A stretch of DNA of 64,000 nucleotides from Promethearchaeota archaeon (GTDB lineage Archaea; Asgardarchaeota; Lokiarchaeia; Sigyniarchaeales; SOKP01): the NCBI GenBank assembly GCA_048938855.1, contig JBHLLT010000003.1:1-64000 (forward strand), given 5' to 3'. The notes below the pieces were generated by a model. It was given only the letters and a program-made list of their open reading frames with translations. It was not told the origin of the DNA and searched no databases. Of this stretch, positions 11,611 through 19,616 are shown piece by piece (within the stretch, counting starts at the first letter, position 1; the number at the start of each line of letters is the position of its first letter). Position numbers and translations under genes: made by a program.

Positions 11611-12369
11611 ATGAGCGAATTTTTGATATTTAATCTTTTGATGATAACTTTTGGTTTTACATCAATAATTGTTTTTATACTACTTTTAAGGATACCCGCT
11701 GGATATGGTCAACATGTTAGTAAAAAATGGGGACCATCTATTGATAATAGATTAGGCTGGTTTTTGATGGAAATTCCTACCATTATTGTTTATTTAATAT
11801 ATTATCTCATTGGAGATCGAAAATTAGATATAGTTCCTCTCATTTTTATGGCTATATGGATGTTACATTACTGTCAACGTACATTAATCTTTCCATTGTT
11901 GATTCGTGGTAAGCTTCCAATGCCCTTAACAATAATCATGATGGGATTTATATTTAATGGAATTAATTCCTATTTACAAGCGAGATGGATTTACACTTTT
12001 TCTCCAGCATACCCTTTAAGTTGGTTATTGCATCCCTTTTTCATTATAGGAGTTTTAATTTTCTTAATTGGCTTTATTATTAATCTCCATTCTGATTATC
12101 TTATTCGCAATTTAAGAAAACCTGGAGAGACTGAATATAAAATTCCTTACGGAGGGATGTTTAAATATGTGAGTTCTCCTAGTTATTTTGGTGAAATAAC
12201 TGAATGGATTGGATGGGCAATTATGACGTGGTCATTTCCAGGACTAGTTTTTGCGATATGGACCTTTGCAAACCTAGCACCAAGAGCTCGATCTAACCAT
12301 TTATGGTATATTAAAACATTTCCAGATTATCCCAAAAATCGAAAAGCACTAGTTCCTTTTATTTTTTAA
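11611..12369 (+). CDS. Steroid 5-alpha-reductase family (3-oxo-5-alpha-steroid 4-dehydrogenase, SRD5A1/2/DET2-like)
   Basis: GWFLME, HY.QR, HSD..IRNLR, YKIPYGGMF.YVS.P.YFGE..EW, NLAPRA...H.WY, YP..RKAL.PF motifs. Confidence 0.9.
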   Translation: MSEFLIFNLLMITFGFTSIIVFILLLRIPAGYGQHVSKKWGPSIDNRLGWFLMEIPTIIVYLIYYLIGDRKLDIVPLIFMAIWMLHYCQRTLIFPLLIRGKLPMPLTIIMMGFIFNGINSYLQARWIYTFSPAYPLSWLLHPFFIIGVLIFLIGFIINLHSDYLIRNLRKPGETEYKIPYGGMFKYVSSPSYFGEITEWIGWAIMTWSFPGLVFAIWTFANLAPRARSNHLWYIKTFPDYPKNRKALVPFIF

Positions 12370-12501: not shown

Positions 12502-13455
12502 TTATTTTTTTAGCTTTCCCAATAACTCACGAATTCTAATTAATTCATCTAAGCGTAATGAATCCTCAGTTCTTTCATTTAAGTTATCAATCTCAAATGA
12601 ATGATCAATTAATTTTACTTTTTCCCATATTGCTGTCCGAATGAATTCTGATTGAGTTTGATGAGAAAGTTGGGCATACTTTTTAATAAAATCTAATTCT
12701 TTTTCATCCACTAAAAATTTTACTTGCTGGGTTTTTTTTAATGCTTCTTCTACTTTTTCTAATTCTTCCATTCGATGAATTTTTTCTCTTTCTCTCTCTT
12801 CTAAAACCGCTATATCAATTTCTTTTAAAAACTTTCCTTCTATATGTGATGGAATAGCTTGCTCTTTAATTTCTTTAATAACCTTAGCTCTTGTATTACG
12901 TGGTCTCTGCTTACCATAGAAAGATTTCAGATAAACAATTTGTTTAACTAAACTAGGAATTTTTTCCTCCAATTGACTGATGTCATTTGTTGATGTCTCA
13001 ATATATCCGTATATCCCTTCTTTTATTACAAATTCACGATATTTTTTTCTCTCGATTTTACCTTGGGACCCAACAGTATCTATCTTGTTTCCTATTAACA
13101 AGAGTGGTGCCCTATTTAGATTAATTTGCCACCATATATTTTTTAAACAAACTTTATGATAATCAAATGTTTCTGGTCTTGATAAATCAAAAACAAATAA
13201 AACAGCTGATGCCCCACTAGCATAAAGCTGATGAAATTTTTCAAATTGTTTATTACTAATAAAATCCCAAAATTGTAGTTTATAATTATCTTCATTGATT
13301 TTTAGTTGTTTTGTAAAAAAATTAACCCCCATTTTTTGAGTTCTCTGCTCTTCAAATACTTTTTCGGCATATAGCTCCATAATAGTTGTCTTACCAACAC
13401 CAGACGCCCCAAGAACTATGATCTTGAATAGATCATCCAAATATTCTTCACTCAT
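12502..13455 (-). CDS. Rab-like small GTPase fused to a C-terminal ribbon-helix-helix (CopG/MetJ-type) domain
   Basis: G1 GASGVGKT, degenerate G3 WDFISN, G4 NKID, G5 ETST. C-terminal QQVKFLVDEKELDFIKKYAQLSHQTQSEFIRTAIWEKV fits the RHH pattern. Confidence 0.8.
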   Translation of the reverse strand: MSEEYLDDLFKIIVLGASGVGKTTIMELYAEKVFEEQRTQKMGVNFFTKQLKINEDNYKLQFWDFISNKQFEKFHQLYASGASAVLFVFDLSRPETFDYHKVCLKNIWWQINLNRAPLLLIGNKIDTVGSQGKIERKKYREFVIKEGIYGYIETSTNDISQLEEKIPSLVKQIVYLKSFYGKQRPRNTRAKVIKEIKEQAIPSHIEGKFLKEIDIAVLEEREREKIHRMEELEKVEEALKKTQQVKFLVDEKELDFIKKYAQLSHQTQSEFIRTAIWEKVKLIDHSFEIDNLNERTEDSLRLDELIRIRELLGKLKK

Positions 13456-13462
13456 TAGTATA

Positions 13463-13470
13463 ATCCTCCT
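13463..13470 (-). promoter_or_regulatory. Shine-Dalgarno sequence (AGGAGGAT) of the GTPase-RHH gene
   Basis: Reverse complement of atcctcct, 7 nt upstream of the ATG at 13455. Confidence 0.7.
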
Positions 13471-13491
13471 ATAACTCTATAATGAATTATT

Positions 13492-13568
13492 TATATGTAC
13501 TGATTATGTACACAAATTAATCATAAGAAACATGCCTATGTAAATATATGTACTGAATAAGTACATAT
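13492..13568. promoter_or_regulatory. Pair of palindromic operators TGTAC-N7-GTACA overlapping a TATA box
   Basis: Site 1 is 13496-13512. Site 2 is 13549-13565 and extends to the perfect ATATGTACT-N5-AGTACATAT (13546-13568). Period is 53 bp. Minus-strand TATAAATA at 13488-13495 abuts site 1. Confidence 0.75.
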
Positions 13569-13630
13569 TGAAATTAAATATAACAAAATCTTTAAAATTT
13601 GATAATCAAGAATACAATAAAGAACTCAAT

Positions 13631-15991
13631 TTAAATTGCCGTATGCTCTGTTCTTCTTATGATCTCATTCTGTAAAACAATTCCTAAATCCACAAAATAA
13701 TCACTATACCCTGCTACTCGAACAATTAAATTCCTATATTGTTCTGGATTTTTTTGTGCCGCTCGTAGGGTATCTGCTGAAACCACATTGAACTGAATGT
13801 GATGGCCATTCATTTCAAAATATGCTCTTATTAAATGAACTAACTTATTAATCCTATTTTGATCTGAAAGAAACTGTGGTGTAAATTTTTGATTCAATAA
13901 AGTTCCACCTGTACGTAAATGATCGATTTTACTAGCAGATTTAATTACAGCTGTAGGTCCATTTACATCCATACCTTGAACAGGAGAAATTCCTTCTGAT
14001 AAAGGCATATAAGCTTCGCGGCCATCTGGGGTAGCCCCTGTTACTTGGCCAAAGTACACATGAACTGTTGTAGGAAGCAAATTAATTCGATGTACTCCAC
14101 CTTTAGTATTTGGACGATTATCAATTGCATTAAAAACTAAATTAAAAACTTGCTTTGTTATAGAATCTGCATAATCATCATCATTTCCATATTTAGGTGT
14201 TTTATACAATAATTTCTGTTGAATACTCTCATAACCTTTAAAATTATTTTCTAAGATTTTTAGTAAATCTTCCATAGAAATAAGCTTCTTATCAAATATA
14301 TTATATTTAATGGATGCTAGACAATCAGTAATACTGCCCATCCCTACAATTTGAATATAAGAAGTGTTGTATTTTGCCCCCCCATCATTATAATCCTTGC
14401 CTTTTTTAATACAATCATCAATTAATATTGACAAGAATGGTGCTGGATTATTAGCCCATATCTGCTCAATAATTTGGTTACCCTTGATTTTAATATTTAT
14501 GAAATGCTTAACTTGTTCAGAATAGGCTTTAAAGAAATCATCAAAAGTATTAAAGCTTGTGATGTCACCCGTTTTCAATCCAATTTGCTTCTTACTAACT
14601 GGATCGATACCATTATGGAGTGTGATTTCTAGAATTTTCACTAGGTTAAAATATCCTGTTAGAATATAAGCTTCTTTCCCAAATGCACCTGCTTCAACAC
14701 AACCACTAGCTCCTGCATTAAATGCATCTTTTATAGATTTTCCTTGTCTTGTTAATTCTTGAACAATTGCATCTGTATTGAAGATTGAAGGCTGACCAAA
14801 ACCTGTCTTTACAATTTCAAGAGCTCGTTTTAAGAACATCTCTGGAGTTTTTTTACTAATTTGAACATTACTACTTGGTTGTACTATCCGCATTTCTTCA
14901 ATTACATCTAGGAGCATATAAGAGACCTCATTAACTCCATCAGAACCGTCCTCTTTGAGACCACCAATATTAATGTTGCAAAAATCCGTATAAGTATTAC
15001 TCTCCTCTGCTGTAATACCCACTTTAGGAGGAGCTGGTTGATTATTAAATTTAACCCAAAAAGCTTGGAGCAATTCATATGCATCTTCCTTTGTTAATAC
15101 TCCTTTTTCAATATCATCTTTGTAGAAGGAGTATAGATGCTGGTCTAAACGACCGGGATTGAAAGAATCCCATGTATTATACTCAGTTATAACACCTAAA
15201 TGAATGAACCAATAATATTGCAGTGCTTCCCAAAATGTTTTGGGTGCTTGTTTTGGGACTTTAAAACATATTTCTGATATCTTTTCTAATTCTCCTTTTC
15301 TATTAGGGTCATTTTCTATACTTGCTAATCTTTTTGCTTCTTGACCATAGCGTTCAGCAAAAGATATTATAGCATCCCCACATATTTCCATTGCTTTTAA
15401 TTGCTCTCTTTTATCATAAGCGTCAGGATCGTTATAAAAATCTAATTCTTGGATACTATTTTTTATTTCTTGTTTAAAATCTAGAAATCCCTTTTCCCAA
15501 ATATTTTTTCCTGCTACAGTATGTCCAGGTGCTCTCTGTTCCATAAATTCTGTAAATATACCTGCTTCATAGGCATAAATCCATTCATTATCAACTTGAG
15601 AAAAGATTTTATCTCGAATTGATTTTCCTTTCCAGAATGGAATTATAATATCTCTTGATTTTTGTTTTGTTTTTTCAGATACTTTAAATGAAATTTTTTC
15701 TCGGGTATTAAGAATATCCAAATCTTGTAAAGTATGACAACATACTTCTGGGTATGTAGGAGTTGCTTTTGGTTCTGGACCGCGTTCACCTACAATTAAT
15801 TCCCCTTCATTAATACAGATTTTTTTATTATCTAGGATATATTTGAATGCTTTTGCCCGAGTAATTGGAGTAGAATATTTAAGGACCGCTCCACTTTTAT
15901 AAAATTCTGTGATTAGTAGAGCACGTTCTGATGAAAGATAAGGAATAGCTTCTCTACTCTGCGTTCGTAATTGCTTAATTCGTTCATTCAT
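13631..15991 (-). CDS. hypD: Glycyl radical enzyme, trans-4-hydroxy-L-proline dehydratase-like
   Basis: TYPEVCCH, FTEFMEQRAPGH, WVKFNNQPAPPKVG, ES.TYTDF, SGCVE, LPTT and RVAGY motifs, closely matching the C. difficile HypD pattern. Confidence 0.85.
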   Translation of the reverse strand: MNERIKQLRTQSREAIPYLSSERALLITEFYKSGAVLKYSTPITRAKAFKYILDNKKICINEGELIVGERGPEPKATPTYPEVCCHTLQDLDILNTREKISFKVSEKTKQKSRDIIIPFWKGKSIRDKIFSQVDNEWIYAYEAGIFTEFMEQRAPGHTVAGKNIWEKGFLDFKQEIKNSIQELDFYNDPDAYDKREQLKAMEICGDAIISFAERYGQEAKRLASIENDPNRKGELEKISEICFKVPKQAPKTFWEALQYYWFIHLGVITEYNTWDSFNPGRLDQHLYSFYKDDIEKGVLTKEDAYELLQAFWVKFNNQPAPPKVGITAEESNTYTDFCNINIGGLKEDGSDGVNEVSYMLLDVIEEMRIVQPSSNVQISKKTPEMFLKRALEIVKTGFGQPSIFNTDAIVQELTRQGKSIKDAFNAGASGCVEAGAFGKEAYILTGYFNLVKILEITLHNGIDPVSKKQIGLKTGDITSFNTFDDFFKAYSEQVKHFINIKIKGNQIIEQIWANNPAPFLSILIDDCIKKGKDYNDGGAKYNTSYIQIVGMGSITDCLASIKYNIFDKKLISMEDLLKILENNFKGYESIQQKLLYKTPKYGNDDDYADSITKQVFNLVFNAIDNRPNTKGGVHRINLLPTTVHVYFGQVTGATPDGREAYMPLSEGISPVQGMDVNGPTAVIKSASKIDHLRTGGTLLNQKFTPQFLSDQNRINKLVHLIRAYFEMNGHHIQFNVVSADTLRAAQKNPEQYRNLIVRVAGYSDYFVDLGIVLQNEIIRRTEHTAI

Positions 15992-16147: not shown

Positions 16148-17836
16148 TTAAGTAACCTTTCTATTTTCTGCTTTTTTAGCTTCTTTGTCTCGTACTACTC
16201 TTCTCAAAACTTTTCCGACTGCACTCTTTGGAAGAGAACGAACAAATTTCACTATTCTTGGATATTTATAAGCAGCCATGTTTTCCATTGACCAATCGAT
16301 AATTTCTTGTTCAGTAATTTTTCCTTTATATTCTTCTTTAAGAATAATATGTGCCATGATATTTTCGCCTTTTTCTTGATCCTTAAAACCAATTACAGCA
16401 CATTCATGAATTGCAGGATGTTCATATAACACTTCCTCAATCTCTCTAGGATAAACACTATGTCCTTTATATTTTATCATATCTTTAACTCTATCGAGTA
16501 AGAAAATATAACCATCTTCATCCAATTTTGCATAATCCCCCGTTCGCAACCATCTATACCCCCCTGTTTCAAAAAATACCTTTTTATTTTCTTCCGGACG
16601 ATTATGATATCCTAGCATAATCTGAGGTCCTGATGCAACTAGTTCTCCAGATTCTCCTATTGGTAGAAAATTTAAATTTTCATCAATAATTCCAACTAAG
16701 GTGCTAGCTATAGGAACGCCACAGCTTCCTTCTTTTTTCTTACTCCATGGGGGTGAATTTGAAACACAAACAGTTGATTCACTCAAACCATATCCTTCTC
16801 CTAATGGAAACCCAGTTTTTTTTTCCCATTCTTTTGCAATTTCAATAGGCATGGCAGATGCTCCTACATTGCAATATTTAAGATTAGAAAAATCAACATC
16901 CTTACTTAAGGGAGATCTTAATATATTGATAAACATAGTGGGCACACCAAGTATAAAATTAGCCTCCATATCTTTAATAGCCTCAATTATTCGAGGAATA
17001 TCAAATGTTGGAAAAATAATACCTTTTCCTCCAGTTATAGGGCCCTGTAGAAGCTCACAAATTTGACCATATACATGATACCAAGGGAGTATAGAAAGTC
17101 CTACGAGGTCTCCCTTAATATAGTGTTCTCTCATATAATCTGAGATTTGTTTAATTTGCATTAGGTTTGACAGAGCATTATAGTGAGACAATTCAGCACC
17201 TTTTGGATCGCCTGTTGTACCACCTGTGTATTGAATAATTGCAATATCTTCTTTTGGATTTATCTTAACTGTAAATTCTTTAAATGGTTCAGAACTTGAT
17301 TCCATTAAAGTGTTGTAATGCAGTATTTTGCCTGTTTCAGGTATATCAGGAACTTTTCCTTCTACATTCACTAAAATAAGTTTTTCCAAAGGTATTTGAT
17401 CTTCTACTTTCTTGAATTCTCGAAAAAATCTATCAATCATTATCAGATATTTTGCTCCTGAATCTTTAATTTGATGAACCATCTCTCTCGCAACAAATAG
17501 GGGACTAATTGCTGTTAAAGTAGCTCCAAGACCTAAAGAAGCAAAATAACAAATACTAAATTGTGGACAATTTGGCAACCAAAGGGCTACTATATCCCCT
17601 TTTTTTATTCCTATTTTTAATAATGCATTAGCAAATCTTCTTGTTAATTGATCCATTTCCCCATATGTAAATTCCTTTCCAAAGTAATTAAATGCTACTT
17701 TATTGGCATTTTCTTTAGCACCTGTCTCAAATATATCAATTAATGACTTATCTTCAGGAATTTCAATTTCAAGAGTCATTCCATCTGGTAGATGATCCTT
17801 CCAAATTCGATTTGTAATATAATCTGGTAATTCCAT
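16148..17836 (-). CDS. fadD: Long-chain fatty acid--CoA ligase
   Basis: YTGGTTGDPKG, EGYGLSE, RTGD, DRVKDMI, LPKSAVGKVLRR motifs. Confidence 0.9.
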   Translation of the reverse strand: MELPDYITNRIWKDHLPDGMTLEIEIPEDKSLIDIFETGAKENANKVAFNYFGKEFTYGEMDQLTRRFANALLKIGIKKGDIVALWLPNCPQFSICYFASLGLGATLTAISPLFVAREMVHQIKDSGAKYLIMIDRFFREFKKVEDQIPLEKLILVNVEGKVPDIPETGKILHYNTLMESSSEPFKEFTVKINPKEDIAIIQYTGGTTGDPKGAELSHYNALSNLMQIKQISDYMREHYIKGDLVGLSILPWYHVYGQICELLQGPITGGKGIIFPTFDIPRIIEAIKDMEANFILGVPTMFINILRSPLSKDVDFSNLKYCNVGASAMPIEIAKEWEKKTGFPLGEGYGLSESTVCVSNSPPWSKKKEGSCGVPIASTLVGIIDENLNFLPIGESGELVASGPQIMLGYHNRPEENKKVFFETGGYRWLRTGDYAKLDEDGYIFLLDRVKDMIKYKGHSVYPREIEEVLYEHPAIHECAVIGFKDQEKGENIMAHIILKEEYKGKITEQEIIDWSMENMAAYKYPRIVKFVRSLPKSAVGKVLRRVVRDKEAKKAENRKVT

Positions 17837-18005: not shown

Positions 18006-19616
18006 ATGAAATCACAAGAGGAACTAGGAATTCCAATCCCAGCAAATAAGCCATTGGTTATCCGAACTATAAAAAAAGTCACAAAAGAACAAAGAGAATA
18101 TGCGTTGAAGAAAACAGAATATAATATGTTTTCTTTTCCAGCAGACTTGTTATTTGTAGATTTTTTGTCAGATTCAGGATCTGGAACAATGACAGATTTT
18201 CAATGGGCAGCTCTCTTTCATGGTGATGAGTCCTATGCCCGTAATAAAGGATATTATGTTCTTTTGGAAGCAATAAGGGATACCTTTGAAAGAGGAGATA
18301 AGCCGAAAAAATCAATTGATTTAATTATTTCCGGTGAGACAAATGTAGATAAATTAATGCATGAACTTTATATTACCTCTTATGAAGGAGGTTTTGTAAA
18401 TGGCGGGATTCATCAATTAACTCGACCAAATGCTTTCATAGTCCCACAAGGTCGATGTTCTGAACATTTGCTTTTCTCTACTATCGCACCAATTTTAAAG
18501 GAAAGAAAAGATATTTCATACTATATTCCGAATAATGGGCACTTCGATACAACCGAAGCTAATATCGTAGCCAATGGTATCAAAGCAGTAAATTTGTTTT
18601 CAGGAAATTTAATGGATGATTTTCCCTATGAAGATATGGATAAAAGAAACCCATTTAAAGGTAATATGGATTTAATAGCTCTTGAAAATCTAATTCAAGA
18701 AAAAGGTGTTGAAGCAATTCCCTTAATATATCTTACTATCACAAATAATACTGCCGCTGGTCAACCAGTATCAATGAAAAATATTAAAGAAGTTCATAAA
18801 ATTGCCAAAAAATATAATATCCCATTGTTCTTCGATGCTTGTCGATTCAGTGAAAACGCAAATTTTATCAAAGAATTTGAAGAAGGCTATCAGAATCACT
18901 CAATACAAAAAATCGTGCAAGAAATGTTCTCTTTTGTTGATGGATTTACGATAAGTTTCAAAAAAGATGGTTTAGCTAATATGGGTGGTGGATTCTTCTT
19001 TAAAGATAAGGGGTTATTCCATGAAAGGTTTTCTGCTGATGAAGATATTGGAATTATACTAAAAGAAAAGCAAATCTTAACCTTTGGAAATGATTCTTAT
19101 GGTGGAATGAGTGGAAGGGATATAATGGCTCTAGCTGCAGGACTTTATGAAGTAGTAAAATTACCTTATTTAAATGAAAGGAAAAGTCAAGTTAGGCGTT
19201 TTGCGAGAAAACTTGCTCAAAATGGAGTCCCTGTTATACTTCCTGCCGGTGGTCATGCTGTATACCTTGATATGTATAAATTCTTTCAAGGAACAGATAT
19301 GAAGATTGATGATTTTGGAGGTGTTGGATTTACAATTGAACTTCTAAAACACTATGGAATAAGAGCGGTTGAACTAGGACCCTTTGCTTTTGAGTGGGAT
19401 AAAAAAACTCCAGAGCAAAGAAAAGGTATACTTAATTTAGTTCGTTTTGCAATGCCAAGAAATGTATATAGTGCCTCTCATATTGATTACACAGTAGCAG
19501 CAATTACAGAACTCTATAAAAATAAAGATATAATCCCAAAAGTGAGGATTTCTCGTGGAGCAGAATTGCGATTAAGACATTTTCAAACGGGACTTCAGCC
19601 AGTTTATAAAAAATAG
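18006..19616 (+). CDS. tnaA: Tryptophanase (PLP-dependent beta-eliminating lyase)
   Basis: DFLSDSGS, GDESY, HFDTT, TITNN..GQPVS, DACRF.EN, SFKKD (PLP Lys). IRAVELG and LRHF are TnaA-type rather than tyrosine phenol-lyase-type (ERG, LRFF). Confidence 0.85.
   Translation: MKSQEELGIPIPANKPLVIRTIKKVTKEQREYALKKTEYNMFSFPADLLFVDFLSDSGSGTMTDFQWAALFHGDESYARNKGYYVLLEAIRDTFERGDKPKKSIDLIISGETNVDKLMHELYITSYEGGFVNGGIHQLTRPNAFIVPQGRCSEHLLFSTIAPILKERKDISYYIPNNGHFDTTEANIVANGIKAVNLFSGNLMDDFPYEDMDKRNPFKGNMDLIALENLIQEKGVEAIPLIYLTITNNTAAGQPVSMKNIKEVHKIAKKYNIPLFFDACRFSENANFIKEFEEGYQNHSIQKIVQEMFSFVDGFTISFKKDGLANMGGGFFFKDKGLFHERFSADEDIGIILKEKQILTFGNDSYGGMSGRDIMALAAGLYEVVKLPYLNERKSQVRRFARKLAQNGVPVILPAGGHAVYLDMYKFFQGTDMKIDDFGGVGFTIELLKHYGIRAVELGPFAFEWDKKTPEQRKGILNLVRFAMPRNVYSASHIDYTVAAITELYKNKDIIPKVRISRGAELRLRHFQTGLQPVYKK

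Follow-up and report, generated by a model that had tools for sequence, protein, structure and literature searches.

Repressors of the ribbon-helix-helix (RHH) type read DNA through positions on their beta-strand and contact phosphates at the N terminus of the second helix, and in Arc and CopG the operator is made of sub-sites lying about one helical turn apart. In NikR, the nickel-binding domain is integral to the function of the protein. Small GTPases of Asgard archaea have been studied as forerunners of the eukaryotic membrane-traffic switches and, to our knowledge, almost none of them has a known partner or output. We describe here a gene in which these two kinds of protein meet. It lies in a stretch of 64,000 nucleotides (hereafter the window; positions 1 to 64,000 of contig JBHLLT010000003.1, assembly GCA_048938855.1) from a Promethearchaeota archaeon, where an intact open reading frame of 317 codons at 12502-13455 on the minus strand joins a Rab-like G domain to a C-terminal RHH domain and a tail helix. 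The RHH-module gene is single copy in the window's own genome, and a full-text search of the open-access literature returned no paper describing a Ras-family/RHH fusion. We propose, with a probability of about 0.62, that the protein acts as a negative autoregulator whose working core would be the RHH domain and its tail, the G domain being an accessory, probably nucleotide-bound, non-switching interaction module.

Conserved candidate operators lie in front of the gene. The 175-bp spacer between the stop codon of the upstream gene, hypD, and the ATG contains two copies of TGTAC-N7-GTACAT, 53 bp apart, flanking a TATA-like box; we call them O1 (distal) and O2 (proximal). A preliminary description of the window had singled out 13480-13575 for a gel-shift assay, and it is this interval that holds the two conserved palindromic candidate operators on the gene's own promoter. 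Measured from the ATG, the sites of seven loci fetched through homologues lie at -106 to -110 and at -53 to -57, and the remaining spacer differs; both occupy the same positions in 29 species-level genomes too. In an alignment of 24 distinct loci encoding a G domain and an RHH domain (G-RHH loci), mean column identity is 96% over the 19 nt of O1 and 89% over the 19 nt of O2, compared with 57-60% in the flanks, and the eight GTAC core positions of O1 show 100% identity. The block that follows O1 (consensus ATTTATAAATGAATATTTCT, a good archaeal TATA box) reaches 87%. Given the distance from this TATA block, the transcription start would fall at the 5' edge of O2. Directly behind the stop codon of hypD all loci have an oligo-T run, an argument for termination there and for a separate promoter of the RHH gene. 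An RNA element in place of the operators was considered and rejected: Rfam gave nothing above noise, the fold z-score was -1.6, and the cores are invariant while the spacers vary without compensation. About 40 nt upstream of O1, at approximately 13585-13612 and at the equivalent positions in relatives, we also observed a semi-conserved block (consensus TTTTAAAGGTTAGGAG, followed by a T-run) that could represent the terminator region of hypD or else a second element of the promoter.

The operator pair is also unique in its genome. Across the 3.95 Mb, GTAC is observed 5773 times against 10936 expected from base composition, an under-representation of about two-fold, one possible cause of which is a GTAC-specific restriction system; because of this depletion the pair stands out all the more. 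GTAC-N7-GTAC occurs 12 times in the whole genome and two of the occurrences are O1 and O2. A position weight matrix (PWM) built from 14 sites gives O1 and O2 scores of 33.7 and 33.8, and the next best site in the genome reaches 15.8, less than half of these values. The occurrence at C34:71073 is intergenic and has a low PWM score.

Are the sites tied to the RHH module? GTAC cores 11 bp apart recur upstream of genes encoding it, whatever the N-terminal domain or the neighbourhood. Four G-RHH loci that have no hypD within the flank retain both sites. Stand-alone RHH genes from three other genera (L059, L060 and L062) have GTAC-N7-GTAC just upstream, followed in L059 and L060 by a TATA-like box, and a distant homologue from another family (L066) is preceded by five GTAC cores at an exact 11-bp phase, the last about 25 bp before the start codon. 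A relocated gene encoding a leucine-rich repeat (LRR) domain and an RHH domain (L075) carries GTAC-N7-GTAC twice, 58 bp apart and with a different spacer. At L057 the operator pair lies ahead of a short-chain dehydrogenase/reductase gene, which itself precedes the G-RHH gene. Finally, a paralogous family with a ribbon of the KLIKILV type has no GTAC sites; its genes show GATC(ATA) repeats with a 10-11-bp period downstream of the TATA box. A chain of RHH dimers on one DNA face would need a 4-bp palindrome for each two-fold-symmetric ribbon, recurring at every helical turn, and we regard these observations as good indirect evidence that the RHH domain binds the GTAC sites. The operator core (GTAC or GATC, with a period of 11 bp) appears to go with the type of ribbon, which may amount to a small and tractable RHH recognition code.

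The same cassette is found under more than one N-terminal domain. A word-indexed search recovered about 56 full-length relatives, all from Loki-type Asgard metagenome bins; some records bear other Asgard names, and they are labelled 'GTP-binding protein', 'Rab family GTPase' or 'hypothetical protein' in databases. Motif counts were made on 54 family members. G-RHH proteins fall into two length classes. In the 255-residue form the last G-domain helix passes almost directly into the ribbon, and the forms of at least 317 residues, to which the window gene belongs, have a charged helical insertion of about 60 residues. From residue 185 to its end the window protein is 53% identical to the C terminus of LRR-repeat proteins that have no G domain. 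In a six-frame search of 400 genomes of the phylum, 48 contained the RHH module, usually as a single copy; 46 of the 48 belong to one family and 34 (35 including the window's own genome) to the window's genus. The open frames come in four sizes: short G-RHH, long G-RHH, LRR-RHH (420-455 residues), and a form of 152-179 residues that consists of helical segment, RHH and tail with no N-terminal domain. Sister genomes pair this promoter, RHH and tail with an LRR domain in the place of the G domain, or with none at all. Because of this replacement at a conserved promoter, RHH and tail, the DNA-binding cassette is, on comparative grounds, one that works without the G domain, and across the family no sensor is constantly coupled to the DNA-binding domain as it is in a one-component regulator. 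In three LRR-RHH loci (L040, L050 and L052) a small upstream open reading frame of 46-57 codons, beginning MT(E/Q)..(L/F)KKPE, lies in the interval from O2 to the LRR start codon, and L053 shows a remnant.

The helical segment preceding the ribbon is itself conserved. Residues 185-239 (12739-12903) carry a motif, LRxxVMxELK...IPxHxNGxYLEKPxExE, that is common to the long G-RHH, LRR-RHH and stand-alone forms and occurs at a permuted position in the paralogous RHH family. A functional peptide motif is the probable explanation, and the 'charged coiled linker' is more than a mere spacer. The paralogous family consists of stand-alone proteins of about 118-140 residues (L065 and L067-L072, in other genomes of the family) with a KLIKILV or KFIKIML ribbon; its segment motif lies C-terminal of the RHH domain and not before it, and its promoters carry the GATC(ATA) repeats.

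The C terminus had been assigned to the RHH class at about 12613-12729, and the assignment holds: residues 243-281 correspond to 12613-12729. Searched in isolation, the C terminus matches Pfam DUF6290, an RHH-type family, as the fold matches also indicate, at 29.2 bits (gathering score 27); NikA-like (25.2 bits), RHH_1 (16.4 bits), RelB and aCcr1 score below their cut-offs. With the whole protein as query, DUF6290, NikA-like, RelB and aCcr1 all match residues 240-280 under the cut-off. An AlphaFold2 (AF2) model of the last 82 residues has a predicted local distance difference test score (pLDDT) of 75, with two helices at 83-93. Modelling of the C terminus had been part of the preliminary description's agenda, and VIA-align superposes the resulting model on RHH proteins only, with Z scores of 5-7.5 and root-mean-square deviations (rmsd) of 1.1-2.5 A over 43-54 residues; the matches span the whole RHH domains of MazE-mt9, TacA, AtaR, CopG, Arc, PutA, AmrZ, NikR and MatP, and the topology is strand-helix-helix. 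A full-length AF2 model, computed with the 54 relatives as input, has a mean pLDDT of 72, with most of the G domain above 85. C-terminal of the G domain it shows helices 188-205 and 215-242, the extended QVKFLV stretch, helices 251-263 and 268-285, a disordered stretch and the terminal helix 297-316, the tail being helical in both models. Among more than 50 relatives the invariant RHH residues are Q244, K246, F247, L248, Q266, S269, F271, I272, R273 and A275; of these, Q244 and K246 lie at the DNA-reading strand positions and S269 at the phosphate-contacting end of helix 2. In sequence the family stands apart: the C terminus finds no match in the PDB at E up to 10, and phmmer with the C-terminal module against 1.8 billion cluster representatives retrieves only 22 clusters, all of one narrow family and none of them a classical RHH family.

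The N-terminal part of the protein is a Ras-type G domain of the Rab-like kind. Residues 11-173 match the Pfam families Ras (E 3e-27), Roc and Arf; the closest solved structures by sequence are Rab30, Rab2, Rab32, Rab7 and Rab1, at E 1e-20 to 1e-17; and the AF2 G domain superposes on Rab11, Rab1 and Rab8 with Foldseek E 1e-14 and a target-normalised TM-score of 0.8-0.89. The preliminary description had seen a Rab-like fold that keeps G1, G4 and G5 and lacks the switch I Thr and the Gly and Gln of G3, and both halves of that statement are borne out. G1, G4 and G5 (GASGVGKT, NKID and ETST) are present, their key residues being kept in 47-54 of the 54 relatives. The switch I Thr is missing, its place being taken by K41; across the 54 family members this position is Lys in 43, Arg in 4 and Thr in 2 (Lys or Arg in 47/54), and it is Thr in 51 of the 58 Ras-like paralogues of the same genome. 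DxxG and the catalytic Gln are likewise missing (DFISN). The G3 Gly occurs in 1/54 family members versus 49/58 paralogues, and the catalytic Gln position is Asn, Asp or Glu and never Gln (0/54) in the family, with Gln in 38 and Glu in 14 of the 58 paralogues. The residues F46, W63 and Y78, which align to the Rab interswitch hydrophobic triad, are also retained. There is no prenylatable terminal Cys as in eukaryotic Rab proteins; the protein terminates in the RHH domain and tail helix (...GKLKK). Because this pattern is held across 54 relatives and is rare in the 58 paralogues, it is not chance decay: the motif state is, by the alignments, stable and selected, that of a domain with nucleotide-binding motifs and no canonical switch or catalytic residues, and not of a decaying gene. 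As G1, G4 and G5 are under selection, the domain probably still binds guanine nucleotide; we infer that it cannot perform the Thr/Gly 'loaded-spring' switch or Gln-assisted hydrolysis.

Two further observations concern other G domains of this lineage. Three Ras-like paralogues in the same genome also lack a canonical G3, namely C59:5397-5888 (WNVESED), C72:7241-7723 (WDMDEDK) and C72:11539-11889 (WIISEDK), and in the first of these Lys replaces the switch I Thr, as in the Rab-like/RHH family. A 432-residue protein of the window's genome (G000 C81:92627-93835; L054:1426-2724, minus strand) joins a Rab-like GTPase, with switch I Thr and ExxG retained, to a probable winged-helix domain (HTH_IclR 20.9 bits, cut-off 22). 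Its homologues P0060 and P0061 have a MarR match at the cut-off and a G3 reading WDIVDNEKF. Rab-like/winged-helix proteins are thus a probable second kind of fusion between a G domain and a DNA-binding domain in the lineage.

In the mechanism that we favor, RHH dimers would insert their beta-ribbon (Q244 and K246) into each 4-bp GTAC palindrome, and each operator would take up two dimers, one per core, spaced by a helical turn. O1, at the edge of the transcription factor B recognition element (BRE) and TATA box, and O2, over the transcription start, would lie five turns apart on the same helix face, and their joint occupancy would shut the gene's own promoter; cooperativity between dimers may come from the tail helix, the G domains or both. 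The G domain would be an accessory module binding a partner or ligand, its dosage kept steady by the RHH loop, and no obligatory sensor. Several observations speak against such an autoregulator. Most operator-bearing loci are orthologous, and co-inheritance inflates their count. The TATA box of the window, ATATATTTAC, is less canonical than those of its relatives. Foldseek on the small C-terminal domain returned essentially RHH proteins only, each at a non-significant E of at least 0.2. The ribbon is an unpaired coil of low pLDDT in the monomer AF2 models, as is expected of a fold that is an obligate dimer. Lastly, scanning the 3.95-Mb genome for a regulon with the PWM gave no further target above 15.8, and the weak matches are mostly intragenic: if the gene itself is the only visible target, the cellular output is left unexplained.

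The preliminary description went further and saw in the G domain the sensor of a one-component regulator. Occupancy by guanosine tri- or diphosphate (GTP/GDP), for example through a nucleotide-dependent dimerization of G domains bridging RHH dimers, would then set operator affinity, and transcription would read the guanine-nucleotide pool or a partner resembling an exchange factor or a GTPase-activating protein (GEF/GAP-like). Such gating would fit the strong purifying selection on G1, G4 and G5 in the 54 relatives, under which nucleotide binding is probably kept, the conserved Lys or Arg that replaces the switch I Thr, and the 255-residue forms, in which the ribbon follows almost directly on the last G-domain helix. 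The Rab-like/winged-helix fusions, at or just below the Pfam cut-off (P0060; C81:92627-93835, one copy in the window's genome), indicate moreover that the pairing of a G domain with a DNA-binding domain recurs. However, the canonical switch residues are absent family-wide, 59 residues of helical segment separate G domain and ribbon in the window protein, no regulon is visible in the genome, and the operators, RHH and tail are conserved where an LRR domain replaces the G domain or where it is deleted. The sensor claim is weakened by this exchange at a constant promoter, and we now consider nucleotide gating unlikely; nor does anything in our data point to the longin partners envisaged along with it. 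What stands of the preliminary description as a whole is its observation, a Rab-like domain without switch residues in a true RHH fusion; its reading as a nucleotide-sensing regulator is weakened. More generally, a Ras-superfamily G domain might act directly on DNA binding, with nucleotide, or the docking of a GEF/GAP-like protein or effector on the interswitch surface (F46, W63 and Y78), controlling the assembly of RHH dimers on the phased GTAC cores. This too we would put forward only as a tentative proposal, with the odds clearly against it.

Three other readings are each weak. The module could be an antitoxin-like, protein-binding cassette, with another factor on the operators and a tail helix that neutralizes or recruits a partner, as in AtaR, TacA and ParD. 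Its best structural matches, AtaR, KacA, TacA, MazE-mt9 and ParD, are indeed RHH antitoxins whose C-terminal helix binds a partner, and the tail helix is conserved under any N-terminal domain. We nevertheless find this improbable: no co-transcribed cognate toxin gene is present, the RHH gene having no co-directional toxin-sized gene after it (the next gene is convergent and encodes a Steroid_dh-family protein, and other loci are followed by a CheR-like gene or nothing); PADLOC, by which a defense system was rejected, does not match the LRR form and matches the window protein only below its threshold (mad8, E 0.004); and ribbon residues and operator cores are co-conserved, changing together in the paralogous family. 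That the gene is a local regulator of the adjacent hypD and acyl-CoA ligase genes could be argued from its position: at nearly all loci of the genus it follows hypD in the same orientation, at a distance of about 175-200 bp. The operators, however, come after hypD, and in loci of 8-13 kb none is found upstream of hypD, the ligase, the lyase or other neighbors; at least four GTPase-RHH loci, as well as forms from other genera, where the hypD association is lost, have operators with no hypD nearby; and the whole block is syntenic, so that adjacency may be mere inherited order. We read it as inherited gene order without a regulatory link, and local regulation of hypD seems to us highly improbable. 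Just as far-fetched, in our estimate, is a locus-specific DNA tether of the kind formed by the centromere-binding proteins ParR and ParG, in which RHH domains arrayed on phased repeats would use the tail helix or the N-terminal domain to bring in a filament or a GTPase-network partner. ParR has an RHH domain followed by a C-terminal interaction helix, a layout that the window protein may be said to resemble, and phased 11-bp repeats, up to five cores in L066, do lie upstream of the gene itself. Yet no ParA/ParM-type motor gene is found among the neighbors of the locus, the site is chromosomal and single-copy with four cores only, and the overlap between sites and core promoter elements is what one sees with plain repressors.

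Table 1. Features of the Rab-like/RHH gene and of its promoter region (window coordinates)
Feature	Position	Strand	Details
Whole gene	12502-13455	-	Stop codon 12502-12504; encodes 317 residues in the order Rab-like G domain, helical segment (conserved), RHH and tail helix
Rab-like G domain, residues 8-180	12916-13434	-	Pfam Ras E 3e-27; AF2 model and Foldseek to Rab11/Rab1
G1 P-loop GASGVGKT	13387-13410	-	Intact; G21 and K22 invariant in 54/54 relatives
Switch I RTQKMGVNF	13318-13344	-	Mg/gamma-phosphate Thr position is K41; HMMER alignment to Rab30/Rab2
G3/switch II WDFISNK	13249-13269	-	Instead of WDxxGQx; WDTAGQE of Rab30/Rab2 aligns to WDFISNK
G4 NKID	13078-13089	-	Intact (guanine specificity); N 51/54, K 47/54, D 51/54 relatives
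G5 ETST	12988-12999	-	E153 in 54/54, S155 in 53/54 relatives
Charged helical segment, residues 181-239	12739-12915	-	Not in 255-residue short forms; common to LRR and stand-alone forms
RHH domain, residues 240-285	12601-12738	-	Strand QVKFLV, helices 251-263 and 268-285; DUF6290 match, VIA-align
Amphipathic tail helix, residues 297-316	12508-12567	-	Conserved; invariant E304, L305, I308, L312
Shine-Dalgarno-like AGGAGG	13465-13470	-	GAGGTG/GGAGG conserved in relatives
Proximal candidate operator O2	13492-13516	-	GTAC-N7-GTAC core 13497-13511, start -56 from ATG; over predicted transcription start
TATA-like box between operators	13536-13549	-	Consensus in relatives ATTTATAAATG; 87% mean column identity; putative promoter element
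Distal candidate operator O1	13545-13569	-	Core 13550-13564, start -109 from ATG; perfect 9-bp inverted arms; abuts TATA-like box at BRE position

The upstream neighbor at 13631-15991 (minus strand) has an equivalog-level match to the glycyl radical enzyme trans-4-hydroxy-L-proline dehydratase HypD (1308 bits, cut-off 1100). It is preceded on the same strand by the acyl-CoA ligase gene (16148-17836), beyond which lies a divergent beta-eliminating lyase gene (18006-19616, plus strand). No glycyl-radical activating enzyme was seen near hypD among the open reading frames tested, and the open-access full text yielded no paper on HypD in Asgard archaea. On the other side of the RHH gene, the convergent Steroid_dh-family membrane protein (11611-12369, plus strand) is accompanied by genes for a 227-residue membrane protein and a haloacid dehalogenase (HAD) hydrolase. 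The hypD/ligase/lyase block and these three downstream genes are syntenic in the genus.

The locus offers a testable output for an Asgard small GTPase, in the form of a genome-unique 25-bp candidate operator and a predicted DNA-reading ribbon, and the natural variants in which the G domain is swapped or deleted are built-in controls. An effect of nucleotide state on DNA binding would make this the first member of the Ras family seen to read out directly on DNA; if the G domain controls that binding, Asgard archaea would have a one-protein route from small-GTPase signaling to transcription, and the exchange of G and LRR domains at a fixed promoter-RHH cassette would be a modular rewiring of input. 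Should nucleotide state have no effect, the protein would still be a clean case of an archaeal Ras-family domain that lacks the switch and is conserved under selection, as well as an example of domain swapping at a fixed autoregulatory cassette.

Comparison with known systems may start from the Asgard Rab-like GTPases (Thor-Rab and the MK-D1 repertoire), with which the window protein shares the Rab-like fold without C-terminal prenylation cysteines and membership in a large set of paralogues, about 70 in its Loki-type genome. MK-D1 has 74 small-GTPase sequences, of which 35 are single-domain and 26 have roadblock or longin domains (PMC10933270); a figure legend there lists architectures that include 'various domains of unknown function', and the parts consulted of this survey of Asgard small GTPases make no mention of a G-domain/RHH architecture. 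The window family, in contrast, lacks the switch I Thr and the G3 Gly and Gln and is fused to an RHH domain. Its motif state recalls the atypical or pseudo-GTPases of the RGK (Rad/Gem/Kir) and Rnd types, where nucleotide-binding motifs are kept and switch I or G3 is altered. By analogy the window G domain is predicted to bind nucleotide without a classical switch; there is, however, no homology beyond the Ras fold, and the eukaryotic proteins are not fused to DNA-binding domains.

Among RHH proteins, the type II antitoxins AtaR, TacA, KacA, ParD and MazE-mt9 are the best structural matches (Z 6.5-7.5). They share the order of RHH, flexible stretch and terminal helix and, on the reading proposed here, autoregulation through promoter operators, but here the operon has no toxin gene and an N-terminal G or LRR domain is present. 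NikR and PutA, both among the structural matches, likewise hold the RHH in one chain with a larger non-DNA-binding domain; in the window protein this partner is a Ras-superfamily G domain, placed N-terminal to the RHH and dispensable or swappable in sister lineages. A parallel to the proposed mechanism is provided by Arc/Mnt of phage P22 and CopG of pMV158, which have the same beta-alpha-alpha fold (Z 5.5-6.2, rmsd 1.1-2.8 A) and operators that, as here, overlap the gene's own promoter, the sub-sites following one another at about a helical turn, a spacing that would suit a dimer of dimers. The window protein differs in having, besides the RHH, a Rab-like G domain of 180 residues, the conserved helical segment and a tail helix, in an archaeal BRE/TATA promoter context and in a sequence-isolated family of 22 clusters with no PDB sequence match.

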